Shown: positions 6,541-20,938 of the stretch, in pieces
Layout of the letters: each line of letters opens with the position of its first letter
How positions within the stretch are numbered: position 1 is the stretch's first letter
NCBI GenBank assembly: GCA_903907175.1
Contig: CAIVNB010000026.1
Location: forward strand, 1 to 43,339
Length of the DNA stretch: 43,339 bases
Direction of reading: 5' to 3'
DNA from: an uncultured bacterium
GTDB lineage: Bacteria > Patescibacteriota > Minisyncoccia > Phycocordibacterales > UBA9973
Position numbers and translations under genes: made by a program
Notes under the pieces: generated by a model
Told to the model about the DNA's origin: nothing
Seen by the model: only the letters and a program-made list of their open reading frames with translations
The model's database searches: none

Positions 6541-6615
6541 TCGGGAGTAGCTCAGCGGTAGAGCGGTCGCCTGTTAAGCGATTGGTCGTAGGTTCGATCC
6601 CTACCTCCCGAGCCA
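6541..6615 (+). tRNA. tRNA-Asn (anticodon GUU), CCA encoded; integration target of the island
   Basis: 75-nt cloverleaf: acceptor TCGGGAG/CTCCCGA, anticodon stem GTCGC/GCGAT with loop CTGTTAA, T arm GTAGG-TTCGATC-CCTAC, discriminator G plus CCA. Confidence 0.9.
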
Positions 6616-6616
6616 G
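6599..6616 (+). repeat. attL core: CCCTACCTCCCGAGCCAG (3' end of tRNA-Asn)
   Basis: Perfect 18-bp direct repeat with 20921-20938. Confidence 0.8.
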
Positions 6617-8103
6617 TTAGGGTTATCAGCTAGTTCTAACACTAGATTGAACGGAGAAGCTATTGAAAAATATAGCTTCTTTTCGTTTACAACAGGGTTC
6701 TGAAGTAGATAACTCAAAAATTGTCTTTTGCCTGCTATATCAGAACTTTTTTCAAATATAATTTTTGCTCTGCGTGCCACAGAAAGCACTGTGGCAACAG
6801 TAGTTTGGTAATCGTAATCTGCTTTTGAGTGTTCAGACATTTCAATTTCAAGGACCTGTATTTGGTCCTGATACTCTTGATGCTTTTTGTCATAGATGTC
6901 CTTAGTAATACTCTGGTCTATATAAGCATCAAGCAACCTATTTTGTTTTGCTTTCAAGTTGTTGTAATCAGTTTGTATACGATTTATTTGTGATTTATGG
7001 AATACTACTTCTGCTTCTGTATTTTTCCTTAATTCATCTAATAGCTCGTTTGTAGCTTCCTCTGTAATGCTCTCAAATCGCTCTAAAACCTTGTATACGG
7101 GCTTCAAAAGGTCTTTCTCGTTTATATACACTCTCTTACAAATACCCTTAGAATTAGTGCAAGAATAGTATGTAGGTTTACCTTCGTGTCTTTCGGCTGT
7201 CATTGAACAACCACAGTTTTGACACTTAAGTAATCCCTTAAATATAAAATCTTTTGAGAGTGCTTTATAAACATTTTTATTACGCTTTGTGCGAACTTCC
7301 TGACATTTATCAAAGAGTTCTCTTGTTATTAAACGAGGATATTTATGAGAATATGAACCATATTTTTTTGATATAGCAGTTCCACAATAAAAACTATCTT
7401 TTAATATATTTTCAACTCCACTTTTTGAAAGTTTATTTCCTTTTAATGTTCTTAAGCCAAGCTCATTCATCTTTCCTCGTATTGTTTCAAGAGAGTATTG
7501 GTCTGTTGCGTATAACTCAAACATTTTTTGTATTAAGTGTCCTCGTTCTGGGTCAATAATAATATCTTTTCGTAATCTTTTTTCTTGGTCCAAACTGATA
7601 TTCAAATAACCTAAACGAACACCTCCTGTCCATTCTCCATTTCTTCGCTTCTGTTCAAATGCTCTTCTTACATTGTCTCCGATGGCATCCGAATAGTATT
7701 TTGCTAAACCTAAACTCATTCCAAATTGAAACTTTTCAACAGCAGACATTTGATTGTTTATTACTTGCCCTTCTGAAACGAAATGAAGTTCTATTCTATC
7801 AGCAACAGCCATTTCATAAAGAGTAGCAACCCTTTTATCAAAAATGCTTCTTGAAAGTCGGTCAACTTTATCAAAACAGACAGCTATTTTTTCTTTCTTG
7901 GATACTTCTTGAACATATTCAAGTAATTTATCAAATTCATCTCTCTTTTCCTTGTAAGCACTTTCGTCAAAACTAAAAGATTTAATAATTTCAAACGATT
8001 TCTTTTTACAATAACTATCTATACGCTCAACTTGAGCAGGCAAGGAGTTTCCTGCTTCTTTTTGTTCTTCTGTTGATACTCGTGAGACATTTATTGCTTT
8101 CAT
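6601..8103 (-). CDS. Large serine recombinase (integrase)
   Basis: Resolvase N-domain with catalytic-Ser context VSRVSTEEQ, recombinase domain, zinc ribbon CQNCGC...YYSCTNSKGICK, C-terminal coiled coil. The last codons and the stop lie inside the att core. Confidence 0.9.
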   Translation of the reverse strand: MKAINVSRVSTEEQKEAGNSLPAQVERIDSYCKKKSFEIIKSFSFDESAYKEKRDEFDKLLEYVQEVSKKEKIAVCFDKVDRLSRSIFDKRVATLYEMAVADRIELHFVSEGQVINNQMSAVEKFQFGMSLGLAKYYSDAIGDNVRRAFEQKRRNGEWTGGVRLGYLNISLDQEKRLRKDIIIDPERGHLIQKMFELYATDQYSLETIRGKMNELGLRTLKGNKLSKSGVENILKDSFYCGTAISKKYGSYSHKYPRLITRELFDKCQEVRTKRNKNVYKALSKDFIFKGLLKCQNCGCSMTAERHEGKPTYYSCTNSKGICKRVYINEKDLLKPVYKVLERFESITEEATNELLDELRKNTEAEVVFHKSQINRIQTDYNNLKAKQNRLLDAYIDQSITKDIYDKKHQEYQDQIQVLEIEMSEHSKADYDYQTTVATVLSVARRAKIIFEKSSDIAGKRQFLSYLLQNPVVNEKKLYFSIASPFNLVLELADNPNWLGR

Positions 8104-9086
8104 AAACTTTTTTTATTATTAAGTGCTTGTAAGATATTTCTCGTTACATACCACATCATTACAGGAGCAACAGCATTACCTAATGCTTTATAATTTTTTC
8201 CTCTACCTTTTAGAAGTTCAAAATTATCTGGGAAGGACTGTATTCTTGCAACCTCTCTAGGGGTAAACATTCTATATTTGTTTTTAAGAAACAGTACTGG
8301 GTCTGTACTATTCAAACTTACTTTTGCCAAATGAGCAGTGACAGTATTGCTTGGCTGGTTTATGTTCTGTGCACGCCCTTTATTCATAGTGTTTGAGTGT
8401 TTAGTATTTTGCATACCTAAAACAGCCTTCTCGCTAAAATAGTATTCTTTTCCAACATATTCTTCAGGTTCAATTATTTCTGATATGGGGACTAGCTTCT
8501 TCTCAATTAAGGGTTTCGGAAAAGAAAAAGCTTCATACGTTTTTTTTTCCTTAAATCCCACAATAAATACTCGCTCTCTTTTCTGAGGAACACCATAGTG
8601 CGAAGCATTTAATACCTGATACTTAATATAGTAACCAGCTTTTTCAAACTCTTTAATAATCAAAGGGAAGGTTTCCCCTTTATTTGCAGATAATAATCCC
8701 TTAACATTTTCTGCTACAAAAACCTTTGGTTTTTTTTCTTTCAAAATACGAACCATTTCAAAAAAAAGTTTACCTCTTTCATCTTTATAACCTAACCTTT
8801 TTGGGTTCTGAGCTATTACAGAAAAGGACTGACAAGGAAATCCTCCTGTCAAAATATCGTGATTGGGTACTTCACTAGATTTAAGCTGTTTTATATCTTT
8901 CACCAAGCATTTATTCTTGAAGTTTAGGTTGTAAATATCACAAACATCTTTATCAAAATCAGTAGCAAAAACCGTCTGGGTGTCTAATTTAGAGTACTTC
9001 TTGTTAAGAAATGTAAAACCACCTTCTGAACCAAGGTCCATACCGCCACAACCACTGAATAATGATGCTATTTTGTATTTCTTCAT
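8100..9086 (-). CDS. DNA (cytosine-5)-methyltransferase
   Basis: Motif I FSGCGG, IV GGFPCQSFS, VI ENVKGL, VIII QKRERVFIVG, IX/X RIQSFPD and GNAVAPV. The ATG at 9086 (MKKYKIASLFSGCGG) is preferred over 9143. Confidence 0.9.
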   Translation of the reverse strand: MKKYKIASLFSGCGGMDLGSEGGFTFLNKKYSKLDTQTVFATDFDKDVCDIYNLNFKNKCLVKDIKQLKSSEVPNHDILTGGFPCQSFSVIAQNPKRLGYKDERGKLFFEMVRILKEKKPKVFVAENVKGLLSANKGETFPLIIKEFEKAGYYIKYQVLNASHYGVPQKRERVFIVGFKEKKTYEAFSFPKPLIEKKLVPISEIIEPEEYVGKEYYFSEKAVLGMQNTKHSNTMNKGRAQNINQPSNTVTAHLAKVSLNSTDPVLFLKNKYRMFTPREVARIQSFPDNFELLKGRGKNYKALGNAVAPVMMWYVTRNILQALNNKKSL

Positions 9087-9087
9087 A

Positions 9088-10503
9088 TTAAACAAGTAAA
9101 GGTTCCCAGTAACCTGATTTTTCAGAGTATCTAACATCGGCACCTTCTCTAGGTATCATATCTAGTAAGTCCTCTTTGTATTTTCCAACAGGGTCTTTTA
9201 TTAGGAATAAATTGACTCCACCTGAAGAAATCATCAATCTGTAAACAAAGTAGTTGAGTCGCAAAGTATTCGCTGAACTCCATTCACTAGGTGTCATATG
9301 GAAAGAATTAGAAGCTAATTTACCTCTACTAATAGTAGTCTTAACTTCTATGTATCTTCTTAAATCTCCTTCTCCATCATAGGAGCTAATATCATAGCCC
9401 ACAGCAAATGTTTCTGGTATCTTTTTGATTAAATGAAGCACATCATTTCTATCAAGTTTGATAAGTCTTACCTTTTCGTGCTCAATTACTACAGACTCTC
9501 CAACATCTCCAATTTCTTTTGTCTTTATACCCTGAGCTGACTCAATACTAGTTTGTAGTTTTGATAAGATTTGTTTAAGGAAATCCATACTTGGTGTTTC
9601 TTCTTCAGAACCTTCAATAATAGAAAGTATGTTTGCCTGAAAGATTGAAGTATCAAGTTTATTATTTACATAATGAAACCATAAATCCTGAGAGCTTGTA
9701 ACCATAGTAAGGGTTCTAATTTCTTCTCTGTAAATAGCTTCATATGGCTCAAAGTAAGAAGCACTTGAGTTAATGTAAGCCTGTATTGTTTCAAGGTTTA
9801 CAAGGTTTGGATAGTAGTTGTAATTAGGTCTTAGTGTTACTAGGTCTCCAAGCTCCATATAATCTAGAATATCTCCTGCATATCTAGTTATATCACCTCC
9901 TTGGTCATATTGAACATTGTTTTTTCTATTTTCGATTATGAGTGTCGCTGTTTTTTGAGGAGTCTGATTGTCTCTTGTTACTCTTAAGTCATTAAATATG
10001 CAGTGCGTTGCTTCAGCTTTTGATATACCAAACTTTTCGTTATTCGTTATTTTCCTACCTTCCATTAAAACAGATAGAATATAACTTGCTGGCTTAAACT
10101 TTATACCTGCTTTTATATATTCAAGTGTTTCAACTGGTTTAAGGTGTCCACCAGGATACTGAAAGTAATATAAAAAATATCTAAAGAACTCAACAAGGTC
10201 TTGAGATTGAGAGAGTAATAATGACATTTGACTCGGTTTTGATAAATCGCCATCATATTCAACTAGTCCAAATAATGCAGATATTTCCGTTCGCCAATTG
10301 TTGATAGTTTTTAATGCTCTAGTACTATTCCCTGGATACAATTTAATAATTGTATTAAGTTTTTCCTTAAACACTACGTGTTCACTTGGCTGTATTTTAG
10401 CTATTTCATTAGCCATAAAATAGAGAACATCCTCTACATTATTTTTGAAGCGTGGTCTTATGTGGTGTATTCGGAAATAGTATTCCTCTGGTATTTTATA
10501 CAT
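9088..10503 (-). CDS. Putative restriction endonuclease with a C-terminal PD-(D/E)xK / DUF3883-like domain
   Basis: Sandwiched between two m5C MTases. The C-terminus has GDVGESVV..E...YDISS...RYIEVKTT (D...EVK nuclease-like signature). The N-terminal ~330 aa is not recognised. Confidence 0.55.
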   Translation of the reverse strand: MYKIPEEYYFRIHHIRPRFKNNVEDVLYFMANEIAKIQPSEHVVFKEKLNTIIKLYPGNSTRALKTINNWRTEISALFGLVEYDGDLSKPSQMSLLLSQSQDLVEFFRYFLYYFQYPGGHLKPVETLEYIKAGIKFKPASYILSVLMEGRKITNNEKFGISKAEATHCIFNDLRVTRDNQTPQKTATLIIENRKNNVQYDQGGDITRYAGDILDYMELGDLVTLRPNYNYYPNLVNLETIQAYINSSASYFEPYEAIYREEIRTLTMVTSSQDLWFHYVNNKLDTSIFQANILSIIEGSEEETPSMDFLKQILSKLQTSIESAQGIKTKEIGDVGESVVIEHEKVRLIKLDRNDVLHLIKKIPETFAVGYDISSYDGEGDLRRYIEVKTTISRGKLASNSFHMTPSEWSSANTLRLNYFVYRLMISSGGVNLFLIKDPVGKYKEDLLDMIPREGADVRYSEKSGYWEPLLV

Positions 10504-10511
10504 ATTTTTTT

Positions 10512-11564
10512 CTAGTTAAATAGTTTAAGGATATTTTTACCTATAGCTTCTGCTAATAATGGAGGAACAGCATTCCCAACTTGCTTATACTGACTGGTTT
10601 TTGAACCAAGAAAAATAAAACCATCAGGAAAAGATTGCAATCTCGCTGACTCTCTGACCGTAGGCACACGATTATATTTATAATGAAAATGATGACGATG
10701 ACCAGTATCAATGGTTGGGCTCGGTTTTGTGCTATTAAATCTAGTCCACGCAATGTTCACCTTACGAGAGTTCTTATATTTTTCTGGTAAATCTTTATAG
10801 TTACCTCCATCAGGGACCAAAGAAATAATATCAATTGTTTTTTGGTCGTGAGAGGTAATTTTATGGTTGTATATCTTTGAGTTAATAGCCCGCATATTCT
10901 TTTGATATTTAGACAATGGTTTTTTAACTAACAATGTTCCATCTTCTAAATCCTTGTCGGGTAAATCAGAAATTGCATCAGCTGTAGTCACCTTGTCTTT
11001 ATTGTTACTAAATAGTGTTTCAGGAAATACAAAATTATTTTTCTCCTTAACACCTACAAAAATAACACGCTTCCTATTTTGAGGAACTCCATAGTCCGAG
11101 GCTAGTAAAACTTTGTATTTAACTTCATAGCCTAATTTCTCAAAATCTTTAATGATTTCGCTTTTTATTTTCCCTTCACCTATAGAAACAAGGTTGGGTA
11201 CATTTTCTAAAACAAATACCTTTGGGTTGAACGCTTTAACAATTTTTACAAAACCTTTGTATAAACTATTTCTGGGGTCGTTCAAATCTCTATTCCCTGA
11301 AATTGAAAAACCTTGACAAGGTGGACCACCAACAACAACATCTACACTACCTATGTCTTTTTTTATTTTATTTATATCAGGATTTCCTAAATCAAGGTTA
11401 AATGCCTTAGCATTTTTATGATTTTCTTGAAATGTTTTTAGGGCATCATCCCAATTATCAATTCCTGCAACAATCTCAAATCCAACACTTTCAAAACCAA
11501 ATGATAATCCGCCACATCCTGAGAATAAATCTAATACTTTAATTTTTTTATGTTTAGCACTCAT
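10512..11564 (-). CDS. DNA (cytosine-5)-methyltransferase
   Basis: FSGCGG, GGPPCQGFS, ENVPNL, QNRKRVIFVG, RLQSFPD, GNAVPPLLA. Confidence 0.9.
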   Translation of the reverse strand: MSAKHKKIKVLDLFSGCGGLSFGFESVGFEIVAGIDNWDDALKTFQENHKNAKAFNLDLGNPDINKIKKDIGSVDVVVGGPPCQGFSISGNRDLNDPRNSLYKGFVKIVKAFNPKVFVLENVPNLVSIGEGKIKSEIIKDFEKLGYEVKYKVLLASDYGVPQNRKRVIFVGVKEKNNFVFPETLFSNNKDKVTTADAISDLPDKDLEDGTLLVKKPLSKYQKNMRAINSKIYNHKITSHDQKTIDIISLVPDGGNYKDLPEKYKNSRKVNIAWTRFNSTKPSPTIDTGHRHHFHYKYNRVPTVRESARLQSFPDGFIFLGSKTSQYKQVGNAVPPLLAEAIGKNILKLFN

Positions 11565-11568
11565 TTTA

Positions 11569-11745
11569 TTATTTAGAAATACAATGTTTCAGAAACCTTT
11601 CAAACTCACTTTTCTCAATCCGAAACTCACGACCTAACTTATATGCTTTCAAGCGACCAGCTTTGATATAGCGGTAAATTGTCATAATGTTTACCTCTAA
11701 TTGTTCTGCAAGGTCTTCTGCTTTATAAAATGGTTTGTCTTTCAT
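11569..11745 (-). CDS. Small HTH protein, excisionase-family DNA-binding domain (58 aa; not in the ORF track)
   Basis: My own translation: MKDKPFYKAEDLAEQLEVNIMTIYRYIKAGRLKAYKLGREFRIEKSEFERFLKHCISK. This is the typical MerR/Xis-type helix-turn-helix (TIYRYIK.G.L.A.K.G...RI). Confidence 0.65.
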   Translation of the reverse strand: MKDKPFYKAEDLAEQLEVNIMTIYRYIKAGRLKAYKLGREFRIEKSEFERFLKHCISK

Positions 11746-11802
11746 ATTTAATATCTTCGTTTACCTAATAATTATACTTTACAACGCTTTACATAGCAAT
11801 TC

Positions 11803-13020
11803 TTAATCAGTGGACATCTTTTTACGCTTATACGGCTTGTATTCGTCAAGTTGCTTATCTAATTGAGTAACCCAATCTCGGAGCTTATTCTTGGTTATAA
11901 GCTCACTAGCTTGTTGCATATCCTTTGCAGTTCTATACCAAGTTCTATCGTGGGACCGCTTTGCTATAATAGTTCGCAGTTGTCGCATTCCATTCTCGTC
12001 TTTTGCGAGCATAAATAATCCGAGTAAGTATATTGCTTGTTTTGGTTTTAATTTCTTATCTGCTAAAAATAATGTTCGCAGTATGTCTTTAATACTTATT
12101 GAGATAGAAAATAATCCGAGATTGCGTTCCTTGATAAGTTTTTTCCAGTAATCATTAACAACCTTTTTACTCATCCCTGTATTAAATACTTGTCTAAAAA
12201 CTGGATTTTTTTCATAACCCAAGTCTTCAAGGACCTTATTCATTTTTTGTTTTTGATTTAATCTAATCTCAAATCTTATTATCTCTTGAAGTTCATTTTC
12301 TTTATTCAGTTCGGAGAATAAACTTCTTTGATACAAGGTCTGGTCTTTGTCTATTGCTCGTTTTTTATCTTTTCTTAAATCAGCAATTTTGTCATAAATA
12401 ACAAGTTCGTGACAGCTAGTATGAGCATATAAACTTTGTCCGTCATTCATAAATCTTGTTTTGGCAAAATCAAAATTTTTTCTTAGGTCCACCTTATTCA
12501 TTTCTGATATTAGGTGGCTAGCAGTATATCCATCTTGGAGCAAGATATTTTTTGAGAAATGGACTGAACTTACGGATGCATTTTCAAGCACTGATTTTGT
12601 GATTATTACACCCATAGTTTTTAATCTATCTTGTAACGCTTCAATTACTTTTGGGAAGTCCTTATCTTCAAGTTCTTCTAGGTTATTAAGATATATCAGT
12701 TTGGGAACTGAAAACTCCATACGAACATTGGCATCTTGAGAAAACCTTCTTTTATATCCAGTTAAGCGAGGAAAATAATTTCCAGTTTCTTTTTCTGCCT
12801 TACTAGGATTGCGAACAAACTTTGAATACTGTTCTGTTTTTGAATATAGTTCCCAACTAGATGTCCCATAAAGGTAAGTCATCTTGTCCTTTGGAATTAA
12901 AAGGCATATTGTATCAATCATTGTTTTGTGTTTTTCTAATCTGATAAAGTTCAGGATTTTGTTTTTTATCTTCCTGTATAAGCCAAGCAAAAGCACCGAC
13001 CAGTTTCTTCTTGTCTTCAA
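11803..13020 (-). CDS. Putative replication initiation protein (gene II/X- or Rep_trans-like); likely true start at M34 (12921)
   Basis: The MIDTICLLIP... N-terminus and the IRFEIRL strand resemble rolling-circle/phage Rep families. Supported by its context in a mobile element. Similarity judged by eye only. Confidence 0.4.
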   Translation of the reverse strand: MKTRRNWSVLLLGLYRKIKNKILNFIRLEKHKTMIDTICLLIPKDKMTYLYGTSSWELYSKTEQYSKFVRNPSKAEKETGNYFPRLTGYKRRFSQDANVRMEFSVPKLIYLNNLEELEDKDFPKVIEALQDRLKTMGVIITKSVLENASVSSVHFSKNILLQDGYTASHLISEMNKVDLRKNFDFAKTRFMNDGQSLYAHTSCHELVIYDKIADLRKDKKRAIDKDQTLYQRSLFSELNKENELQEIIRFEIRLNQKQKMNKVLEDLGYEKNPVFRQVFNTGMSKKVVNDYWKKLIKERNLGLFSISISIKDILRTLFLADKKLKPKQAIYLLGLFMLAKDENGMRQLRTIIAKRSHDRTWYRTAKDMQQASELITKNKLRDWVTQLDKQLDEYKPYKRKKMSTD

Positions 13021-13165
13021 GAGGGAGGTTGTTTATTTTGAAACTTTTTATAGTTTCTTTTATTGAGACAATATCCTGCATAGAAAACCCCTAAGGGTTA
13101 TCTTAAGGGTATTCTTTACGCAATAATTAAAATAAGTATTTTATGTAGTACAGAAAATTTATGTG

Positions 13166-13870
13166 CTACAGTTCTTTTCTCTTCCTCTTTTCTAACGATA
13201 TTATTTTACCAATATAGCCATAGTCTATAATATTATTACTTCCAAATTTATCTCCTATAAGTCTCATTATTTCTTTCCTTGGAAGTTTTCTGTTTTCGTA
13301 TATGAAATCATTTCTTTTTTCTATTATAGTTTTTTTGTTTTTAACCTTACCTAAAGTTGTTTTCTTTTGATTAGCTTTTTGAAAAGGTTCTATCGAAAAG
13401 CGATATAATTTTTCTACATAGTTTAGTATATCTCTTTTGGATGCATAAGGACTTATTCTAATAACTACAGGAAATTGTTCTTCTGTATAAGGATTATGAC
13501 CCGATATGAGACTTTCTTTTGTGTCTATAATATCTTCAGTAAATAACATGTTTCCTATATCATTTTCACTAAATTCATCTCTTAATATATATAAAACTAT
13601 AAAATTCAAGCACTCAAATTCTAAATGATATTTATTTAATAGCTCAAGAGCTTCTTCTTCTATTCCATTAGGAAAAGACAGTGATTTTTCTTCTTTATTT
13701 TTATTAACATCAATGTTATATTTTTTTCTTATCTTCAGGATACTCTCTTTGAAGGGTTCTTCTTTGAGTATTTCTTTTATGTAATTAACTAGTTTCTTGT
13801 GTCCTGTAGTACTTTTGAGTAAAGTGAGTATTTCTTCAATAGATAGTTTCTTATTAATATTTTTCTTCAT
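13166..13870 (-). CDS. Hypothetical protein (island)
   Basis: Long ORF of 234 aa, Lys/Glu-rich. No recognisable motif. Confidence 0.45.
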   Translation of the reverse strand: MKKNINKKLSIEEILTLLKSTTGHKKLVNYIKEILKEEPFKESILKIRKKYNIDVNKNKEEKSLSFPNGIEEEALELLNKYHLEFECLNFIVLYILRDEFSENDIGNMLFTEDIIDTKESLISGHNPYTEEQFPVVIRISPYASKRDILNYVEKLYRFSIEPFQKANQKKTTLGKVKNKKTIIEKRNDFIYENRKLPRKEIMRLIGDKFGSNNIIDYGYIGKIISLEKRKRKEL

Positions 13871-13912: not shown

Positions 13913-13941
13913 TTGATTAAAAACATATAAAAAGGTATAAT
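13913..13941 (+). promoter_or_regulatory. Near-consensus promoter giving a probably leaderless PanA mRNA
   Basis: TTGATT, 17 nt, TATAAT. Only 6 nt separate the -10 from the ATG at 13948. Confidence 0.5.
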
Positions 13942-13947
13942 CTCTAT

Positions 13948-14430
13948 ATGAGTTTAGTTGCTAAAAAAATTAACGCTTTGACCGTTGCAGAGTATTTTAT
14001 TGATAAAGCGAATAAAGAAAAAGAGGTCATAACAAACAAGAAGTTACAAAAACTTCTCTATTATTCGCAAGTTTGGTCATTGGTTCTGAATAAAGAAAAA
14101 CTTTTCTCTGAAAGGATTGAAGCGTGGGTTCACGGACCAGCAATTCCTTCGGTTTATAGAAAGTTTAAGATTTTTGAGTTCAATCCTATTAAATTAGATA
14201 CTGCTAACATTTCTTTTGGTTTTTCTAAAAAACAAGTAGATTTACTTGAAAACATTTGGTCTGTATATGGAAAATACAATGCTGAATACCTTGAAGCTCT
14301 TACACATTCTGAACTTCCTTGGCAAGAAGCAAGAAAAGAAAAATCTGCTTCTGAACCTTCAAATAATATAATTAGTTTAGCTACAGCAAAGAAGTTTTAT
14401 GCAGGAAAACTCAAGCCAAAAACTTTCTAG
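13948..14430 (+). CDS. DUF4065 / Panacea-domain protein (SocA/GepA-like antitoxin)
   Basis: ITNKKLQKLLYYSQVWSLVL...FSERIEAWVHGPAIPSVYRKFK matches the DUF4065 hallmark (LQKLLYY.Q...L......F...IEAW.HGPV.P.VY). Confidence 0.75.
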   Translation: MSLVAKKINALTVAEYFIDKANKEKEVITNKKLQKLLYYSQVWSLVLNKEKLFSERIEAWVHGPAIPSVYRKFKIFEFNPIKLDTANISFGFSKKQVDLLENIWSVYGKYNAEYLEALTHSELPWQEARKEKSASEPSNNIISLATAKKFYAGKLKPKTF

Positions 14431-14833
14431 CGATGTAGCTGAGCTCACAACAGGTCAAGAAAAAATCTCTCCGATTGTTGCGATTTCAGATGCACTTAAA
14501 GATTACGAAAACAAAAGGGTTGTTTTTAGTTTTGAGATTTATAATTGCAATCAATGCGAAATTGCTAAATTAGATAAAACAGAAGCAAAAAAACTTACAA
14601 AAGAATTAAAAAAAATATCTTCAACTCTAACTAAGCACTTTAGGCATCAAGATACTTCTTGTATTGCCTGTAAGCCAATTCATAATTCTGGCAGTTACTC
14701 TGTTCTTTTTGATGGTATTCCAGAAGATACTGATATGTTAGAAGTAGATTATTCTGGGGCAGGCAGAGTGTTTGGCTATATAGTTAATAACATTTTTAAT
14801 ATAGTTGCAATTGGTAAGAAACATAAACAATAA
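14399..14833 (+). CDS. Unknown 144-aa protein overlapping the PanA 3' end by 32 nt (candidate toxin partner)
   Basis: The ATG at 14399 is the only early Met. The C-terminal GRVFGYIVNNIFNIVAIGKKH resembles the last beta-strands of RelE/ParE/Gp49-type toxins. Weak, by-eye call. Confidence 0.4.
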   Translation: MQENSSQKLSSDVAELTTGQEKISPIVAISDALKDYENKRVVFSFEIYNCNQCEIAKLDKTEAKKLTKELKKISSTLTKHFRHQDTSCIACKPIHNSGSYSVLFDGIPEDTDMLEVDYSGAGRVFGYIVNNIFNIVAIGKKHKQ

Positions 14834-14898
14834 AACTTAGTTTTTTGTAGCTGAAAAAGCTTTTGAATACTTTACTTTAATTCACAGTATACTACAAT

Positions 14899-15588
14899 AT
14901 GAATATGGAAAATAAAAAAACAACTAGCTATCTAAACACTAAAGGGTGGTATAGACTTTTGAAGGTAATTTTTGGTATAGGTTTTATAATTGTATTAGTT
15001 ATATTTAATTTTGTTGCTTTTTCTGGCGGGATTAAAAAGGTGGAGCAAAACCAAACAACAATACACTGTAATATAAAAGACAAACAAACTTTTACTGCTC
15101 AAAGCTTAAATATCTCCTTTAGTAATAATGATTTTCCAAATGGTCAATTTGATTATAAAAAGTTTTTTGGAGGATTTAATGATTACACTATAAAAAGTAT
15201 TCTGACTGCTTGTAATCCAAAAGTATTTACGGGTCAAAAAGTTGACGATGTTTACGATGTCCAAAAGGGATATGAAATCTTAAATAAAGCTGATGTTTTA
15301 TCTATTCCTATATCCAATGACAATCAAAGTGTAAGAGATAGTGCAGTAAATACTGCTATGGATAAAGATTATTTACCTTATAAAAATCAAACAAGTAACT
15401 TATTTGGGAGTAGCAAGATGGCTTATTTAGATTTTTCTTTCAAAATCTTTGATATAACACCAGTATTTACTTACAACAGCTTTTTAGAACTTTTCTTTAT
15501 CGGCAACATAGTAATTTTACTTATCTTTGAAGCAATAAGGAGGATTTTTTATTATATAGTTTTAGGAAAAATAAACCCTGAAAAATAA
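14899..15588 (+). CDS. Membrane protein with N- and C-terminal TM helices, unknown function
   Basis: Hydrophobic segments VIFGIGFIIVLVIFNFVAF and LELFFIGNIVILLIF. Confidence 0.45.
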   Translation: MNMENKKTTSYLNTKGWYRLLKVIFGIGFIIVLVIFNFVAFSGGIKKVEQNQTTIHCNIKDKQTFTAQSLNISFSNNDFPNGQFDYKKFFGGFNDYTIKSILTACNPKVFTGQKVDDVYDVQKGYEILNKADVLSIPISNDNQSVRDSAVNTAMDKDYLPYKNQTSNLFGSSKMAYLDFSFKIFDITPVFTYNSFLELFFIGNIVILLIFEAIRRIFYYIVLGKINPEK

Positions 15589-15591
15589 TAT

Positions 15592-15858
15592 ATGGGAAAA
15601 CAAAATAAATCATTATTCAAAAACCCTGTTTTAATAATTCTAAGTGTAATAATACTTTTACTGATTATTTACTTCGGTGTTATAGTTCCTTATCAAAAAA
15701 AACAAGAAAATGTTAATCTCGGTTGGGGGGAACCTACAGAAAGTTCTTGTTTAAGTATAGCTAATAGCCACTTTAATAAAGATACTAAGCAATGTGATTG
15801 TAATCAGGGTTATGAGGTTGATTGGGCAACATTTAATTGTAAGTTATCTAACAAGTAG
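15592..15858 (+). CDS. Small membrane-anchored Cys-containing protein
   Basis: TM helix VLIILSVIILLLIIYFGVIV, then 4 Cys in the C-terminal 40 aa. Starts 4 nt after the previous stop. Confidence 0.4.
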   Translation: MGKQNKSLFKNPVLIILSVIILLLIIYFGVIVPYQKKQENVNLGWGEPTESSCLSIANSHFNKDTKQCDCNQGYEVDWATFNCKLSNK

Positions 15859-15983
15859 TTTTTAGTTAGTTCTGAAGTGTAAGTGTTGGGAATAGTCCTA
15901 AAATACCACTAAACTGCAATTCGCTTTTAATACTGGTCCAATTCAAAGTTCTGAACTTGTCTACTAGAGGGAGCACCGTAGAA

Positions 15984-16011
15984 AACCCTTATTTCACAAG
16001 GGTTATTTTTT
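15984..16011 (+). terminator. Rho-independent terminator
   Basis: AACCCTT, loop ATTTCAC, AAGGGTT, then ATTTTTT. Confidence 0.6.
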
Positions 16012-16051
16012 GGAGGTTAGTAGAAGTTCGAACCTAATGTATAATAGAAAG

Positions 16052-16291
16052 ATGAAAATAGAAGTATTGGGTTCAGGTTGTAAAACTTGTAAAAAGTTAT
16101 TTGAAATAACTCAAAAGGCAGTTAGTGAATTAGGATTAAATACAGAGGTTGAGTATATTACTGATGTTCAAAAAATTGTGGCTATGGGATTAATGCAAAG
16201 TCCAGTATTAGCGATAAACGACAAACCAGTGATGGTTGGTTTTTCTCCTGACATTGAAAAAATTAAAAAGATTATCAAGGAAAATACTTAA
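16052..16291 (+). CDS. Thioredoxin-fold redox-active disulfide protein (MTH895/TM0996-like, ~79 aa)
   Basis: MKIEVLGSGCKTCKKL with a CxxC motif. The ATG at 16052 is preferred because the listed start at 16010 lies inside the upstream terminator. Confidence 0.7.
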   Translation: MKIEVLGSGCKTCKKLFEITQKAVSELGLNTEVEYITDVQKIVAMGLMQSPVLAINDKPVMVGFSPDIEKIKKIIKENT

Positions 16292-16300
16292 TTAAAAAAT

Positions 16301-16822
16301 TTACCTCATCATTCCTTGTCCATTTTGAATCCCATTTCCCATCATTCCTCTCTGTGGGTTATTTTTAAAATTATTTCCTTGAAGAAGTCCGTTCATCATT
16401 CCTCTCATAGGACCATATTTGAACATTATGTCGTTTAAGCCCGTCATATCTACAACGTATCCCGCGATAATAATCGCTAGAATAAAACCAGCTACTATGA
16501 TCCAAGGATTTTTTTTATACGAAAAATCGTATTGGCGAATAAGCCAAATGCCTATTACTAAACCTAATATTGCGAGTACTATAGTCCACCAAGGGAAGTT
16601 TGATATCATTTGATCAAACCTATACTGACCCATTGGTCCATGAGTACGCAATGAAAATCTTATTAATCCTACAAGAAAGGTTGAAACAACAACAGAAGAT
16701 ATTAATCCAACCAAAGTTAAAATAGAACCAATAATAAAATATATTCGAGGCTTCATTTTTGCTTTGCCTAGATGGATTTCGCTCATCACGTTTTCAGTAA
16801 TATTTTTTAATTCTTTTGACAT
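16301..16822 (-). CDS. Membrane protein, probable anti-sigma partner, with a Met/Gly-rich C-terminal tail
   Basis: Overlaps the ECF sigma stop by 16 nt. About 4 TM helices. Tail MRGMMNGLLQGNN...RGMMGNGIQNGQGMMR. Confidence 0.45.
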   Translation of the reverse strand: MSKELKNITENVMSEIHLGKAKMKPRIYFIIGSILTLVGLISSVVVSTFLVGLIRFSLRTHGPMGQYRFDQMISNFPWWTIVLAILGLVIGIWLIRQYDFSYKKNPWIIVAGFILAIIIAGYVVDMTGLNDIMFKYGPMRGMMNGLLQGNNFKNNPQRGMMGNGIQNGQGMMR

Positions 16823-17349
16823 ATATTTTTCATTATCTTTTTAGCTCTATTAATACGGGTGGCGACGGTACCCATTGGTATTCTTAAAATGTCACTAATT
16901 TCATCATATGATTTTTCGTCTATATAATACAAAGAAAGAGGTTCAGAATATAATAAAGGAATATTTTTTAAACACTTTTCAACTTTCTCTATTGTTTCTT
17001 TTTCTTCAAAATCTTTTTCAATATCGTCATCGCTTTTAAAATCCCAATCCTCTAATAGGGGCGTTTCTTTTTGATATTTTTTAGCCAAATTTATTGCTTG
17101 ATTGTGAGCGATACGATAAATCCAACTAGAAAATTTCTTTTCAATATTAAAACTATTTAAATTGACATATGCTTTTATAAAAGATTCTTGCACTACATCA
17201 ATTGCTTTGTCCTCATTTTTAATTAAATTATTTACATAACGTACAAGTTTCTTTTGGTACCTATCAATAATAAGAGCATAGAGATCCTGGTTAGAAGTTC
17301 TCACTTTTTCTATTATCTCTTCATCTGTTAATTCTTTGTCTACGGTCAT
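16807..17349 (-). CDS. ECF-type RNA polymerase sigma-70 family factor
   Basis: Region 2 (VVQESFIKAY...SWIYRIAHN) and region 4 HTH (SYDEISDILRIPMGTVATRINRAKK). Confidence 0.8.
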   Translation of the reverse strand: MTVDKELTDEEIIEKVRTSNQDLYALIIDRYQKKLVRYVNNLIKNEDKAIDVVQESFIKAYVNLNSFNIEKKFSSWIYRIAHNQAINLAKKYQKETPLLEDWDFKSDDDIEKDFEEKETIEKVEKCLKNIPLLYSEPLSLYYIDEKSYDEISDILRIPMGTVATRINRAKKIMKNICQKN

Positions 17350-17427
17350 ATTTATATACTAGCAGTTTTTAAGTCAATACATCAAACCCCGATTTATTTC
17401 GGGGTAAGATATATTAATTATAAATTA

Positions 17428-17829
17428 TTAATTCATGCAATTACCTCTACCTGTTCCTCTTCCTGTACCATTTTTCATGCCTTGTAGAGAACCATTCTTT
17501 AATCCAAGACCAAGTTCTTGTCTGATTTTTTGAGCACCTGCGATGTCACCATTTTCAGCTAATTTATGAGCTTCAGCGAATTTTGCAAAGTTATCTTTAT
17601 TAATAACTTGTGTAACTCTACCTTGGTTCTGCATAAGTGCTTTCCATGCTGTGTAATCATTTGCCGAGAAGGCTTTTTCAATAGCAGTCTCACGTTCAAC
17701 TGAGTAGTTTGGACCTTTTACTGTGGGGTTTCCTTTGTATGCATTTGCACTACTTACAATTGCTCCAGAAATCCCTATAACTAACGCTAATGTTCCTAAT
17801 CCTAAAAGTATCTTTTTTGTTTTGTTCAT
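17428..17829 (-). CDS. Secreted/anchored small protein, unknown function
   Basis: N-terminal signal or anchor KKILLGLGTLALVIGISGAIVSSANA. Gly-rich C-terminus GTGRGTGRGNCMN. Confidence 0.45.
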   Translation of the reverse strand: MNKTKKILLGLGTLALVIGISGAIVSSANAYKGNPTVKGPNYSVERETAIEKAFSANDYTAWKALMQNQGRVTQVINKDNFAKFAEAHKLAENGDIAGAQKIRQELGLGLKNGSLQGMKNGTGRGTGRGNCMN

Positions 17830-17915
17830 TTAATTTATTCGTTTAATATTAATACTAATTCGACCCTATACCCTTAATACAAGAGGAGTGTCATTTTTCT
17901 TCCCTCGTTAACTAG

Positions 17916-17944
17916 TTGACAAAAATAACCGATGGGTATATCAT
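17916..17944 (+). promoter_or_regulatory. Promoter giving a probably leaderless ArsR-family mRNA
   Basis: TTGACA, 17 nt, TATCAT. Six nt separate the -10 from the ATG at 17951. Confidence 0.45.
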
Positions 17945-17950
17945 TCAAAT

Positions 17951-18223
17951 ATGCGTTTGAATGAATTAGCGAAGTTAATGAGAACAGCTGGAGACGAAAG
18001 TAGGCTTAAAATCCTGTGTGTCATTTTTAATGAAAAAAAGATATGTGTTTCTGATATAGCTGAAGAATTAAATATGAGTGTAGCCATTATCTCTCACCAT
18101 CTTCAAGTAATGGTTAAGGAAGGATTGGTGATTGCTAGCCGTGAGGGCAAAAGAATCTGTTATGAATTACCTAAAGGTCCGTTTGTAAAAGATTTAAAGA
18201 AATTTATTTGTAAGTATAAATAG
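17951..18223 (+). CDS. ArsR/SmtB-family transcriptional regulator
   Basis: 90 aa winged HTH: RLKILCVI...ICVSDIAEELNMSVAIISHHLQVMVKEGLV. Confidence 0.8.
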   Translation: MRLNELAKLMRTAGDESRLKILCVIFNEKKICVSDIAEELNMSVAIISHHLQVMVKEGLVIASREGKRICYELPKGPFVKDLKKFICKYK

Positions 18224-18252
18224 AGTTATATTATTAGTTTATTTTTAAAATT

Positions 18253-18600
18253 ATGTTAAATACAAATTTAAAACATATTGAGGATGTTGTTGAATATAAT
18301 AAGGTACTTAAAGAAAATGAGAATGTAATGCTTGTGTGTGGTCGTATGGGCCCTATGTGTATTCCTGTTTATGGAATAGCCGAAGAACTTGAAAATGATT
18401 ATAAAAATGTAAAATTCTGTGATTTTGAGTTTGATACACAAGAAGCAGATGTAATCCGTAAACTGCCAGAAGTAAGAGGATTTATGGGTATTCCATTTAC
18501 TATTTATTACAAGAATGGAAAAGTCGTAAAAGCTACTTCAAGTATTCAAACGAAAGAACAAGTAAAAACTATATTAGATAAAGAATTTGGAGTTAAGTAA
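18253..18600 (+). CDS. Thioredoxin-fold protein with an atypical active site
   Basis: Thioredoxin-like length and layout, but CGRMGPMC (C-x6-C) where WCGPC is expected. Sits directly upstream of trxB. Confidence 0.5.
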   Translation: MLNTNLKHIEDVVEYNKVLKENENVMLVCGRMGPMCIPVYGIAEELENDYKNVKFCDFEFDTQEADVIRKLPEVRGFMGIPFTIYYKNGKVVKATSSIQTKEQVKTILDKEFGVK

Positions 18601-18609
18601 TATAAATCT

Positions 18610-19554
18610 ATGAGTACAGACAACCATTATGATTCTATAATTATAGGTGCAGGTCCTGCTGGTCTAACGGCGGGCATTTATCTTGCAAGAGCAAGAGTAA
18701 AAACTTTAATTATAAATGAAGGAATAGTGGGAGGACAAATAATTTTGACTCATGAAATTGCAAATTATCCAGGAGTAGAAAATATAAGTGGATATCAACT
18801 TGCAATGATTATGAAAAAACAGGCTGAAAATTTTGGCTGTACCATAATTAATGGAAAGTCTGTAAAAAGTCTTGAACTAGAAAATGAAGTAAAAAATGTA
18901 ACTCTATCTGACGGTAGTATTTTTACAACAAATAGTATAATTCTTTCTCCAGGAGGAAGATCCCGTACTCTTGGTATATCAGGTGAAGATATTTTTAAAG
19001 GAAAGGGTGTTTCTTATTGTGCTACATGTGATGGTGATTTCTTTACTGATAAAGAGATAGTTGTTGTTGGAGGTGGAAACTCAGCTTTAGAAGAAGCAGT
19101 TTCTCTTACTAAATATGCTAAGAAAGTTACTATTGTCCATCAACTTGATCATTTCCAGGCATCTCAATATGCCATAGAAGAAGCTAAGAAAAATTCAAAA
19201 GTTAATTTCATTATGAAGTCCTCGTTGTCTTCTTTTAAGGGAAATGAAAGTATCGAAAGTGTAGATATTAAAAATTTAGAAACAAACGAAATAACTAATT
19301 TTAAAACTGATGGAGTTTTTGTTTTCATCGGATACTCTCCAAATACAGAGTTCTTAAAAGATAAAGTTGAATTAAATCGACGAGGAGAGATTGTAGTAAA
19401 AGAAGATATGTCGACCAATATTGAGGGTGTTTACGCTGCGGGTGATAGCATCACAAAACTTTATCGACAAATCACCACAACAGTTGCTGATGGCACGATA
19501 TCTGCATTGTCAGTTTCAAATTATTTAGAAAAAAGTCGTATTAATAAAAATTAA
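18610..19554 (+). CDS. trxB: Thioredoxin-disulfide reductase
   Basis: FAD site GAGPAGLTAGIY, redox centre CATCDG, NADPH site GGGNSALEEA. Confidence 0.9.
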   Translation: MSTDNHYDSIIIGAGPAGLTAGIYLARARVKTLIINEGIVGGQIILTHEIANYPGVENISGYQLAMIMKKQAENFGCTIINGKSVKSLELENEVKNVTLSDGSIFTTNSIILSPGGRSRTLGISGEDIFKGKGVSYCATCDGDFFTDKEIVVVGGGNSALEEAVSLTKYAKKVTIVHQLDHFQASQYAIEEAKKNSKVNFIMKSSLSSFKGNESIESVDIKNLETNEITNFKTDGVFVFIGYSPNTEFLKDKVELNRRGEIVVKEDMSTNIEGVYAAGDSITKLYRQITTTVADGTISALSVSNYLEKSRINKN

Positions 19555-19567
19555 TTATTATAAATAT

Positions 19568-19807
19568 ATGAAAAATCATAAAGTTATAGTTTATTCAACC
19601 AGTACTTGTCCTTATTGTGTCTATGCAAAAGATTATTTGAAAAAGAAAGGTGTTTCTTTTGAAGATAAAAATGTTGGATTAGATAGATCAGCAGGGATGG
19701 AGATGGTTCAAAAAAGTGGGCAGATGGGTGTGCCCGTTATAGATATTGATGGTGAAATAATAGTTGGATTTCAGCCAGAGGTATTTGATGAATTATTAAG
19801 TAAATAA
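19568..19807 (+). CDS. Glutaredoxin-like protein (NrdH/Grx family)
   Basis: 79 aa, CPYC active site, GVPVI and GF motifs. Confidence 0.8.
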   Translation: MKNHKVIVYSTSTCPYCVYAKDYLKKKGVSFEDKNVGLDRSAGMEMVQKSGQMGVPVIDIDGEIIVGFQPEVFDELLSK

Positions 19808-19812
19808 ATAAT

Positions 19813-20715
19813 ATGAAAATTACAAAAAATGAAGGTGTTATAGATAGATTAATTAGAATACCAGTAGCAACAGTATTCTTTTTATTGGCATTCTTTTGGT
19901 TATCAGGTGTCTTACAAATTATATTTTATATTCTTGCGGTAGTGATGCTATTTACTGTCATAACTGGGTTTTGTGCTTTGTATAAAATACTTAAGATAAA
20001 TACAAATAAAAATCCCGAAAAGAAAGTGTCAAAAATGACATTGAGCGTTTTTACTATTTTGTCTGTTATCATTTTAGTTCTAGGTAGTTATGCTAGTAAT
20101 TTTCTCACTAAGAAGTTTTTTCTAGAGGACTACAATAATATGAACCAGTATTATAAACAAACTTTGTTTTATACTGGGCAGAACAAAAGACCTGAAGCGT
20201 TAGATAATTACAACAAACTTGTAAGTGAATATGGAGTATTTTTAAATAAATATATAAAATATCATCCTTATGTTGTTTCTCACGACAAGCAATTTAATGC
20301 TGATTTAATAAAAGTTTCAGATATCATTACCAGCCTAAAAGATAAAGTAAACACAGGTGATCTAAAATCTGCTCATACAGATTTTGAACAAGTAAGACCA
20401 ATATTTCAAGATTTATTAAAAAGAAATGGTTTTTCAATGTTAGCTATTTCTCTTGTTGATTTTCATGATGCTATGGAAAAAATTATCTCTGCATCTGATG
20501 CAAAAGATGGTCCCCAAGTGATTACAGTATATGAAGAAGTAGACAGTAAGTTAAAGGCAGTGGAAGAAGCCGCAAATGATACTGAAATTCAAGCTATAAG
20601 ACAAAAATTAGATGAAACATTAACCTTAGCAAAAGAAGGCAAAGTGGATTTACTATCTGCAAAAGCAGCAGAGCTTAAAAGTGCTTTTGTGAAGGTTTAT
20701 CTCAAAAGAGGGTAA
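19813..20715 (+). CDS. DUF2892 (YgaP-like membrane domain) protein with a long helical C-terminal domain
   Basis: N-terminal IDRLIRI..., two TM helices, ...TGFCALYKIL. Confidence 0.55.
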   Translation: MKITKNEGVIDRLIRIPVATVFFLLAFFWLSGVLQIIFYILAVVMLFTVITGFCALYKILKINTNKNPEKKVSKMTLSVFTILSVIILVLGSYASNFLTKKFFLEDYNNMNQYYKQTLFYTGQNKRPEALDNYNKLVSEYGVFLNKYIKYHPYVVSHDKQFNADLIKVSDIITSLKDKVNTGDLKSAHTDFEQVRPIFQDLLKRNGFSMLAISLVDFHDAMEKIISASDAKDGPQVITVYEEVDSKLKAVEEAANDTEIQAIRQKLDETLTLAKEGKVDLLSAKAAELKSAFVKVYLKRG

Positions 20716-20724
20716 TTATTCTTT

Positions 20725-20761
20725 CAAAATAGTTATTCGAACATCACCCCACGTCTGGAGC
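20725..20761 (+). repeat. Copy A (5' part only) of the repeat family also at 21583-21660 and 23505-23593
   Basis: 31 of 37 nt identical to 23505-23541 (CAAAATA.T.ATTCGAACATCA.CCCA.GT..GGAGC). Confidence 0.6.
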
Positions 20762-20802
20762 AATTTAAAAAACTACAAGAGATTGTGGTTTTTAAATTGC
20801 TC
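20758..20802 (+). other. Long hairpin at the island's right end
   Basis: GAGCAATTTAAAAA pairs perfectly (14 bp) with TTTTTAAATTGCTC. It extends through CTACAA/TTGTGG around a GAGA loop. Confidence 0.6.
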
Positions 20803-20807
20803 GGGAG

Positions 20808-20831
20808 AGAAAGCCAACTGCTTGGCTTTTG
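20808..20831 (+). terminator. Rho-independent terminator candidate just inside attR
   Basis: AAGCCAA, loop CTGC, TTGGCTT, then TTT. Confidence 0.5.
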
Positions 20832-20920
20832 TGTAGGGATCGAAAAGCTTTTCTGTATTTTTGAAAATTTCTGATTTTTAAAAATTAGAAAAGGTATACT
20901 GCTCCTGTAAGGAGAGATCA

Positions 20921-20938
20921 CCCTACCTCCCGAGCCAG
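20921..20938 (+). repeat. attR core: CCCTACCTCCCGAGCCAG
   Basis: Perfect copy of 6599-6616. No tRNA body precedes it. Confidence 0.8.

Follow-up and report, generated by a model that had tools for sequence, protein, structure and literature searches.

The window analysed here is the whole stretch of 43,339 nucleotides from contig CAIVNB010000026.1 (assembly GCA_903907175.1, forward strand), belonging to an uncultured bacterium of the Patescibacteriota (lineage UBA9973). It contains a tRNA-Asn gene at 6541-6615 that is directly adjoined by a gene for a large serine recombinase (LSR), as found with ARAGORN, Rfam and Pfam. This bears out the original prediction, made from the letters alone, that an LSR element is integrated in the 3' end of tRNA-Asn. 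The prediction had drawn that element as an island from 6599 to 20938, the two places where the last 18 nucleotides of the tRNA are found. We consider it very probable instead that the element is a plasmid-like unit of 9,361 bp that splits its own recombinase gene when it enters the tRNA gene, and that the second 18-mer and a block of redox genes stand outside of it. The features needed to follow the argument are given below, with the strand where it applies and with a slash marking the junction within sequences.

6541-6615, plus strand: tRNA-Asn(GTT), the integration target, with encoded CCA (ARAGORN; Rfam RF00005, 70.6 bits)
6601-8103, minus strand: 5' part of the split LSR gene, a 500-aa open reading frame (ORF) ending W-L-G-R-stop (Pfam PF00239, PF07508, PF13408; PHROG 95 integrase)
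6610-6613: attL crossover core GAGC (GCTC on the LSR strand; LSR codons TGG/CTC), consistent across 23 loci and with the element boundaries in the relatives L026 and L027
15866-15973, minus strand: the last 35 codons of the LSR gene (LPLVDKFRTLNWTSIKSELQFSGILGLFPTLTLQN) and its stop, detached from the rest; joined to 6613 they give a 533-aa ORF
15971-15974: attR crossover core GAGC, right end of the LSR element, the identity common to attL and attR
15975-16004, plus strand: native tRNA-Asn trailer (ACCGTAG...) with a rho-independent terminator at 15984-16004 (terminator scan)
16010-20715: redox and extracytoplasmic function (ECF) sigma block, with genes for Trx_3, a putative anti-sigma factor, an ECF sigma factor, a 133-aa protein, ArsR, Trx, TrxR, Grx and a YgaP-like protein (Pfam)
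20799-20844, minus strand: partial copy, in inverted orientation and with a hairpin inside it, of the T-arm and acceptor 3' strand (GCTCGGGAG ... TAGGGATCGAA), able to pair with the 18-mer
20921-20938, plus strand: second copy of the tRNA-Asn 3' 18-mer, an exact repeat

The target tRNA and the split recombinase gene

The 18-mer CCCTACCTCCCGAGCCAG has exactly two copies in the window, 6599-6616 and 20921-20938. The second one is real and, as the prediction had stated, no tRNA body was found ahead of it. No third site was found in the window even when up to 3 mismatches were allowed, and two matches were obtained in 0 of 100 shuffled sequences. Two smaller features that had been described, the CCCTA...TAGGG dyad at 6599-6622 and a promoter to the right of the second 18-mer (TTGACA-17-TACTAT, 20940-20968), were also seen. 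Base composition fails to distinguish the element, the redox block and the flanks (GC 0.316, 0.312 and 0.33, respectively). The tRNA-Asn of two relatives (the first copy in L013, and the one in L014) ends ...GGAGC-A and its CCA is not encoded.

In many related Patescibacteria the tRNA-Asn(GTT) gene carries a group I intron in the anticodon loop, between GT and T (Rfam RF00028, 70-90 bits). It was located in L023 (1687-2272), L028 (1860-2441), L052 (11526-11742), L076 (5054-5674) and L078 (11543-12118). The intron of L052 measures 217 nt, and the other four are of about 550-600 nt and apparently bear an ORF.

Judged by its domain content, the recombinase is a bona fide LSR. The 500-aa ORF has a resolvase catalytic domain (PF00239, E=1.3e-20, residues 7-158) together with a recombinase domain (PF07508, E=5.6e-16) and a zinc ribbon (Zn_ribbon_recom, PF13408, E=1.5e-9). 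Residues R8, V9 and S10 of the catalytic serine motif, as well as the Cys residues, are invariant in an alignment with 30 homologs, and the protein can be aligned to the catalytic domain of the TP901-1 integrase. The AlphaFold2 (AF2) model of an intact homolog (pLDDT 70) contains long paired helices at 352-456 corresponding to a coiled-coil. The final two codons of the ORF and its stop are antisense tRNA, and its terminal codons TGG CTC GGG AGG TAG (W-L-G-R-stop) fall inside the 18-mer at 6599-6616, just as predicted. The further claim that excision would leave this C-terminus unchanged did not hold, as the end of the protein would become ...W-L-PLVDKFRTLNWTSIKSELQFSGILGLFPTLTLQN-stop instead of ...W-L-G-R-stop.

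The rest of the gene is found at 15973-15866, on the same strand as the LSR. The coding span of this tail (15973-15869) is followed by a stop codon at 15868-15866, and the remnant starts exactly at the codon where the LSR ORF exits element DNA. Joining 8103..6613 to 15973..15866 restores an ORF of 533 aa. The rebuilt protein aligns without gaps to the C-terminal end of intact relatives, with 68-83% identity. In relatives with the same kind of split locus the 5' part of the LSR is an intact ORF (tblastn coverage 1-498) that keeps all the recognised domains. Furthermore, none of the 16 full-length tail remnants has an internal stop, pN/pS was calculated as 0.36 for the whole tail and 0.33 for codons 10-32, beyond the att arm, and the DNA sequence of the final three codons, CTTCAGAAC, does not vary. 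Judging by these codon patterns, the tail remnants are kept as coding sequence. Since only 35 of the 533 residues are detached and every recognisable domain is located in the 5' part, the integrated enzyme is probably still active.

Attachment sites and boundaries in the window and its relatives

A scan of the JGI metagenome proteins provided 312 LSR relatives, and the best 80 of them (62-97% identity) were examined as L023-L102. Throughout this set, the conserved C-terminal codons ...CCT AAC TGG CTC... (P-N-W-L) read antisense to the tRNA end ...GAGCCAGTTAGG, and the LSR is split at a tRNA in 52 of the 80. After P-N-W-L comes an intact antisense tRNA-Asn in 36 relatives, a tRNA-Asn with a group I intron in 14 (Rfam RF00028, with the 5' exons found) and a tRNA-Gln in 2. 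Another 8 continue for about 35 codons with the conserved tail LPLVDxFRTxNWxxIKSELQFSGILxLFPxLxLQN, 8 have other tails and in 10 the contig ends. About 28 related loci have a tail remnant on the LSR strand, at a distance of 5-10 kb upstream from the split gene, and in most of them a host terminator directly precedes it. In the window, ACCGTAG and the terminator are found outside of the tail remnant, which is what the downstream side of a tRNA gene should show. Many contigs of relatives start about 100 nt before the remnant and stop about 100 nt past the tRNA junction, as would be anticipated if a mobile unit were present in mixed populations. In L026 and L027 the same element (99.1% over 7.98 kb) is found in unrelated contexts, and the block of identity extends from the CTC of the tail to ...TGGCTCCG (...CCTAACTGGCTCCG of the LSR), ending precisely at the predicted crossover on both sides.

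Consensus sequences for attP and attB were reconstructed from 23 loci. The attP site is located within the LSR ORF, at the conserved codons ...P-N-W/L-P-L-V-D..., and therefore integration removes the final 35 codons of the LSR. The attB site consists of the tRNA-Asn 3' end and its trailer (...CCTCCC GAGC ACCGTAG...). The consensus of attP is TtTAGT.cTAGAACTAgCtgatagtCCTaACTgG/CTCCc.cT.gTggACaAGTTCAGAACT and that of attB is (trailer)tttG/CTCCGcgGg.AGGa.TCGAACCT, with G/CTC(C) alone in common. Likewise, GAGC is the sole identity common to attL and attR, and its position at 6610-6613 and 15971-15974 gives an element of 9,361 bp and not of 14.3 kb. The 18-bp core proposed before is thus reduced to four bases, something typical of serine integrases, and the right boundary moves from 20938 to 15971-15974, where it is placed by the detached LSR 3' end and by the native trailer and terminator. 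Farther from the core, attP has the outer motifs TAGAAC / GTTCAGAAC, and their counterpart in attB is the T-loop TCGAAC, about 5 bp nearer to the core. We read this offset as the usual difference between attP and attB half-sites in the published model of serine integrases, which would explain the use of a tRNA by an enzyme of this class. The universal T-loop is apparently used as part of attB. If the boundaries are as described, the attP junction of the window copy would have ...AACCCTAACTGG joined to CTCCCTCTAGTAGAC..., as GCTGATAACCCTAACTGG/CTCCCTCTAGTAGACAAGTTCAGAAC, and its attB junction would be GGTTCGATCCCTACCTCCCGAGC/ACCGTAGAAAACCCTTATTTC.

Small circular contigs of relatives contain an intact LSR, genes for a 372-aa protein and for a helix-turn-helix protein of the HTH_17 family (both described below) and restriction-modification (R-M) cargo, with no tRNA. 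The ends of L034 overlap by 123 nt and those of L108 by 43 nt. L047 and L048 are circular permutations of each other with 100% identity, and the same applies to L106 and L107, 100% identical, which come from two sequencing runs and have an overlap of 30 nt each. A protein search (5.8 billion proteins) retrieved at least 1,514 LSR homologs. Among the best 120 the tail is covered in only 6, all of them on contigs of 9.4 kb or less, and the forms devoid of tail are found on contigs of up to 1.18 Mb. At the level of sequence, these comparisons demonstrate that the gene is split, where the element begins and ends, that the core is 4 bp long, that circular intact forms exist in relatives and that the clade targets tRNA-Asn and tRNA-Gln.

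Some related loci are more complex. In L060 (29-6568) a series of six LSR tail remnants is found upstream of a single split LSR that adjoins tRNA-Asn, in L027 the tail is immediately preceded by a second, partial LSR, and the LSR of L026 is fused to a foreign tail. These tandem and hybrid arrangements suggest that occupied sites can be re-targeted and that tails can be exchanged.

The remnant series of L060 resembles repeated integration and decay (tandem accretion) at one tRNA. In L037 (3144-3217) and L058 (11534-11607) an LSR of the same clade (74-80% identical) is split at tRNA-Gln(TTG). The tail remnant of L058 was found 9.9 kb upstream, and both loci resemble a target switch within the family. 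A related element, L076, contains a LOOT RNA (1034-1154; Rfam RF03000, 77.8 bits) about 2.4 kb upstream of the LSR. We also scanned the GTDB genomes with PLD, the protein encoded on the other side of the tRNA. The source species is not among the representatives, and the scan yielded L012, L013 and L014. In L012, the closest GTDB relative (Paceibacteria; PLD 75% identical), a decayed LSR without catalytic domain adjoins tRNA-Asn (11149-20115). The genes TAL-PGI-UvrC-UvrA, located to the left of PLD in the window, are to the right of PLD and inverted in L012, with one end of the inversion apparently near the tRNA-Asn site. In L014 (1367-8717) a different LSR of 527 aa, without tblastn match to that of the window, overlaps the tRNA-Asn 3' end. 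After this LSR come an HTH_17 homolog (68% identical) and genes for a tyrosine integrase, for an EcoRI-like methylase and for a GmrSD-like nuclease.

The redox genes and the second 18-mer

The redox and ECF block follows the native tRNA trailer and ends before the second 18-mer, which places it outside of the LSR element. The stress genes at 16010-20715 had been listed as cargo of the island. In L078 the homologs (71-84%) of Trx_3, the putative anti-sigma factor, the ECF sigma factor and the 133-aa protein are found 5' of tRNA-Asn, between the tRNA and PLD, i.e. on the host side. The inverted T-arm and acceptor copy at 20799-20844 is not peculiar to the window, as similar modules are found beside the trailer in L031, L049, L065, L095 and L082/L102. 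L049 and L095 have a further copy of the tRNA end about 160-200 nt beyond the tail remnant; being outside of the remnant, this outer repeat is not the end of the element. By these comparisons, the second 18-mer of the window is not the attR of the resident LSR, and it is probably an older scar or a duplication.

A scar would be explained by a composite origin, to which we give serious weight, if somewhat short of even. An older element (E1, about 15975-20920), with a copy of the tRNA 3' end, the terminator and the redox and ECF genes and no integrase now, would have integrated first, close to the T-loop of tRNA-Asn, pushing the host 3' end out to 20921-20938; the LSR element would have inserted afterwards, into the regenerated tRNA. 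This concerns the outer repeat alone and is compatible with the 9,361-bp element. The pair of 18-mers fits the formal signature of a tRNA island and the promoter of the next host gene comes right after the second copy, but Pfam found no integrase in 15975-20920, and a simple attR leaves unexplained the inverted tRNA-like copy at 20799-20844. The region is variable, since another strain has a glyoxalase and a 274-aa protein ahead of the same 142-aa gene, and assembly breaks recur at 16.4-17.4 kb. Short repeat-flanked equivalents are found in L049 and L095. On the other hand, the ECF block of L078 is 5' of the tRNA, outside any island, and the empty site was not found in the JGI metagenome contigs.

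The alternative for the outer repeat, rather unlikely in our opinion, is that the distal 18-mer and the inverted copy arose by local duplication, or form a structured tRNA-like trailer module, and are no element's att site. As variants, they may derive from a decayed second tRNA-Asn or, as in L013, from a pseudogene with an intron. In L013 the flank that comes after a tandem pseudo-tRNA-Asn resembles that of the window (CCAG CTAGACAAAT vs CCAG ATTGACAAAT). The recurrence of inverted T-arm and acceptor modules by the trailer in the loci named above is also as expected, and the acceptor sequence of the module agrees with the tRNA of each host. However, no Rfam family matches the region, and in the window 4.8 kb of genes separate the trailer from the module.

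The single island of 14.3 kb (6599-20938), as first drawn, would be moved by the LSR through the 18-bp repeats, with all the genes as cargo and the C-terminus unchanged. Its attP would be ...GGAGAGATCA-18mer-TTAGGGTTATC and its empty site ...18mer-ATTGACAAATC. A perfect pair of 18-mers is far above chance, the LSR adjoins the tRNA, a promoter stands just right of the second copy, and in one contig (L006) the stretch from the tRNA to Trx_3 is 99.98% identical behind a diverged left flank. Nevertheless, we regard it as very improbable. The detached LSR 3' end sets the boundary at 15971-15974, the relatives are 5-10 kb long with the same split, the boundaries of L026 and L027 are exact, and the motifs of the attP arms were not found in the left flank of the second 18-mer. 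A tiny core is enough for serine integrases, and GAGC alone is common here; moreover, the equivalent outer repeat of L049 and L095 is about 160-200 nt outside of the tail remnant. The empty site proposed for the island (...CTCCCGAGCCAG+ATTGACAAA) had 0 matches in the JGI metagenome contigs.

Finally, the idea that 15866-15973 is the relic of an older, decayed tandem LSR element and not the end of the present LSR has in its favour the tandem arrays and hybrid junctions of the family (L060, L027, L026), but it is hardly credible, because the remnant is the first one met and at the size typical of the family, has no internal stop and is followed by the host terminator and not by an LSR 5' fragment, and because the similarities of LSR and tail go in step (87% and 89% identity, respectively, in L025).

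Some other observations concern this part of the window. In L013 (11448-11640) tRNA-Asn is followed, after a gap of about 25 nt, by a second tRNA-Asn-like copy that is not called by ARAGORN; a GC-rich hairpin is inserted into its D-loop, its acceptor strand has one additional C, and its 3' flank is like the one to the right of the second 18-mer in the window. A group I intron relic near the second 18-mer was considered and is not claimed, as Rfam with a permissive E-value gave no match in 20600-23700. Independent assemblies (L001, L002, L003, L006 and two more) break in or near the anti-sigma and ECF sigma genes, at 16370-17420, suggesting a second similar copy or strain variation of the block. 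A repeat of about 50-100 nt (...GAACATCAYCCCAMGTYYGGAGC...) is present at 20709-20761, 21556-21660 and 23489-23593, with 91% identity between the long copies. Each of the three copies immediately follows the stop codon of a gene; the first is at the end of the redox block and the others are in the right flank, and the repeat has no Rfam match. Farther to the right, 28983-33473 contains a 1,496-aa ORF with diverged repeats of about 290-300 nt and a local GC of about 0.40; going by precomputed Pfam hits on identical contigs, these repeats are probably FN3-like.

Backbone genes, proposed mechanism and known systems

Between the two parts of the LSR gene, the element contains the following genes.

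8100-11564, minus strand: type II R-M cargo, with M.C5 at 8100-9143, a BpuJI-like restriction endonuclease at 9088-10503 and M.C5 at 10512-11564 (Pfam; PADLOC REase_II, MTase_II)
11569-11745, minus strand: 58-aa protein of the HTH_17/excisionase family (PF12728, TIGR01764)
11803-13020, minus strand: conserved backbone protein, a 405-aa ORF with likely start at 12921 (372 aa); 742 homologs
13166-13870, minus strand: 234-aa protein, an accessory backbone gene in some relatives (tblastn, 10 of 80 loci, including the circular L034)
13948-14833, plus strand: SocA/Panacea antitoxin (13948-14430) and an overlapping 144-aa partner (14399-14833) (PF13274)
14899-15858, plus strand: two small membrane proteins of 229 aa and 88 aa, the last genes in the element (ORF list; always adjacent in exact-match contigs)

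The backbone of the family is formed by the 372-aa possible replication protein, the 58-aa excisionase-type HTH protein and the LSR, with variable cargo between them. The gene content had been anticipated in part. The Xis-like HTH ORF, the R-M operon and the stress genes were found, only the Panacea antitoxin could be recognised in the toxin-antitoxin-like pair, and the gene called Rep-like matches none of the family libraries. The R-M genes are clear, with BpuJI_N at E=6e-93 and the flanking DNA_methylase genes at E=8e-78 and 2e-83. The Panacea antitoxin (160 aa) matches PF13274 with E=1.2e-19, and its 144-aa partner has sub-threshold matches only (MAG6450_fam and phrog_8366). No transfer genes were recognised among the element proteins with Pfam, PHROG or NCBIfam.

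The HTH_17 gene co-occurs with the LSR in 47 of the 80 loci and in the circular forms, and its product is a candidate directionality factor or regulator. The 372-aa gene accompanies the LSR in 41 of the 80 loci and in every circular form with mapped genes. Its 742 homologs (75-94% identity) are typically of 372 aa, for which reason the start was placed at 12921. UniRef gives it the automatic name 'Replication initiation protein', and its AF2 model has a pLDDT of 64. It has no match in Pfam, PHROGs, NCBIfam, PADLOC or the PDB sequence profiles, and a fold search of the PDB was without match (TM <0.2). The BFVD matches are weak (TM about 0.4); the proteins matched are unnamed viral ones, apart from an Inoviridae REP that ranks 12th.

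As a separate observation, the 58-aa HTH_17 protein matches PADLOC mad1 (the HTH protein of a methylation-associated defence system, E=3.6e-10) and its gene adjoins the R-M genes. It could be a controller of the R-M cargo instead of, or besides, an excision factor.

The mechanism that we propose would work as follows. Strand exchange would take place inside the 4-bp core GAGC, within which the crossover dinucleotide would lie. Integration would set the 5' 1.5 kb of the LSR gene against the tRNA, so that the ORF ends in antisense-tRNA codons, and would leave the 35 final codons at the other end of the element, beside the tRNA's own terminator. It would also supply the encoded CCA, the last bases (C)CA of the tRNA being then derived from the element. 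Excision would rebuild the 533-aa gene on a 9.4-kb circle. We infer that the 500-aa enzyme, which retains the catalytic, recombinase, zinc-ribbon and coiled-coil parts, is active without its tail and excises the element, probably with HTH_17, that the 35-aa tail matters in the free state, and that the 372-aa protein replicates the circle. More tentatively, and with rather little confidence, the splitting of the gene might be a state switch, the free circle producing the 533-aa enzyme and the integrated element a tail-less enzyme with an antisense-tRNA end. The two forms would then differ in the direction or level of recombination (with HTH_17) or in stability, and elements landing on occupied sites would swap tails, giving hybrid recombinases and shifts of target such as that from tRNA-Asn to tRNA-Gln.

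Several results weigh against a self-splitting 9,361-bp element that replicates and moves on its own. Neither the empty site nor the attP junction of the window's own copy was found, and the exact-match contigs are all occupied (the exact-protein look-ups used PLD, the 142-aa gene, the LSR and Trx_3). In scans of IMG/VR, neither the LSR protein nor a degenerate attP pattern gave a match. Contig L006 consists of the tRNA, the element and 420 nt of the Trx_3 region, 99.98% identical, behind a diverged PLD allele, and movement of the 9.4-kb unit alone does not explain it; a larger segment may have been transferred, the PLD allele may be recombinant, or the contig may be an assembly chimera. The replication role of the 372-aa protein is plausible because of the circular contigs, and otherwise draws on a database name and a weak fold similarity of the model; the circular contigs could also be excision products and not replicons. 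In addition, the AF2 model shows the tail of the LSR as low-confidence short helices only, and hence no mechanistic conclusion is taken from it.

L006 was also considered as proof of transfer to a second host and was downgraded, as the contig extends 420 nt beyond attR and the stretch of tRNA shared is shorter than the assembly k-mer, and as the contig may reflect a recombinant PLD allele or a chimera.

The mobile elements and the genetics of the Patescibacteria, part of the candidate phyla radiation, are hardly known, and the element is indeed as unusual as the original prediction had held. Our literature searches found no description of such elements in this group and no report of a serine integrase with attP inside its own ORF and remodelling of the enzyme. 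The class is abundant (at least 1,514 LSR and 742 backbone homologs) and precisely bounded, and could potentially provide vectors for Patescibacteria. Serine integrases are tools for genome engineering, and a clade that hits tRNA genes systematically represents a new class of target for them. The locus is also a warning that a perfect repeat of a tRNA fragment can mislead the delineation of islands where the integrase is a serine recombinase.

Compared with known LSR systems (phiC31, Bxb1, TP901-1, A118, SPbeta and the Ccr recombinases of SCCmec), the enzyme of the window has the same resolvase R-x-S motif, recombinase domain, zinc ribbon and long coiled-coil, and its att sites are similarly short and imperfectly symmetric, with few bases shared by attP and attB. 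It differs from them in the tRNA target, in the location of attP in the integrase ORF, which splits the gene, and in the patescibacterial hosts. Unlike phage LSR systems, the family is made of plasmid-like circles of 5-10 kb and not of phages. Serine integrases have been described as not known to target tRNA genes (PMC4383910).

Like the classical tRNA islands with tyrosine integrases (the Islander signature), the element is integrated in a tRNA gene, whose 3' end it restores, and has its integrase beside the tRNA. However, no long displaced fragment of the tRNA is found at its far end, where GAGC alone is duplicated, and the 18-mer that mimics such a fragment stands 4.9 kb past the true end. 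A tyrosine recombinase (Phage_integrase domain) was not found by Pfam in 6599-20938. Integrative plasmids of the AICE/pSAM2 type are similar in their small size, in having circular and integrated forms (the circles being seen in relatives), in the int-xis set, possibly with rep, and in the tRNA target, but in the window the integrase is a serine recombinase, Rep is only putative and no transfer genes are recognised. There are mycobacteriophages with attP within the repressor gene, so that integration alters the C-terminus of a protein of the element. In that case a tyrosine recombinase serves as integrase and the repressor gene is the one remodelled, whereas the element described here remodels the recombinase itself.

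By analogy, the closest counterpart is the archaeal SSV-type tyrosine integrase. In these 'suicidal' integrases (SSV1, pT26-2) the site is located in the integrase ORF and integration into a tRNA splits the gene (Badel et al. 2020, PMC7253208), and hybrid genes made of parts of different origin have been described as well (PMC7253208). The LSR of the window resembles them in having the att site in its own ORF and parts of the gene at both ends of the element, and the hybrid of L026 with a foreign tail is a further likeness. To judge by our literature searches, the arrangement is new for serine integrases, and if the reading of a state switch is true, the most abundant small mobile elements of Patescibacteria would have a bacterial equivalent, built on a serine recombinase, of the archaeal 'suicidal integrase'. 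The differences are that the enzyme is a serine and not a tyrosine recombinase, that the hosts of the SSV type are archaeal and that splitting of the SSV type leaves two inactive pseudogenes, whereas the LSR of the window loses 35 of 533 residues and its domains stay in the 5' part.

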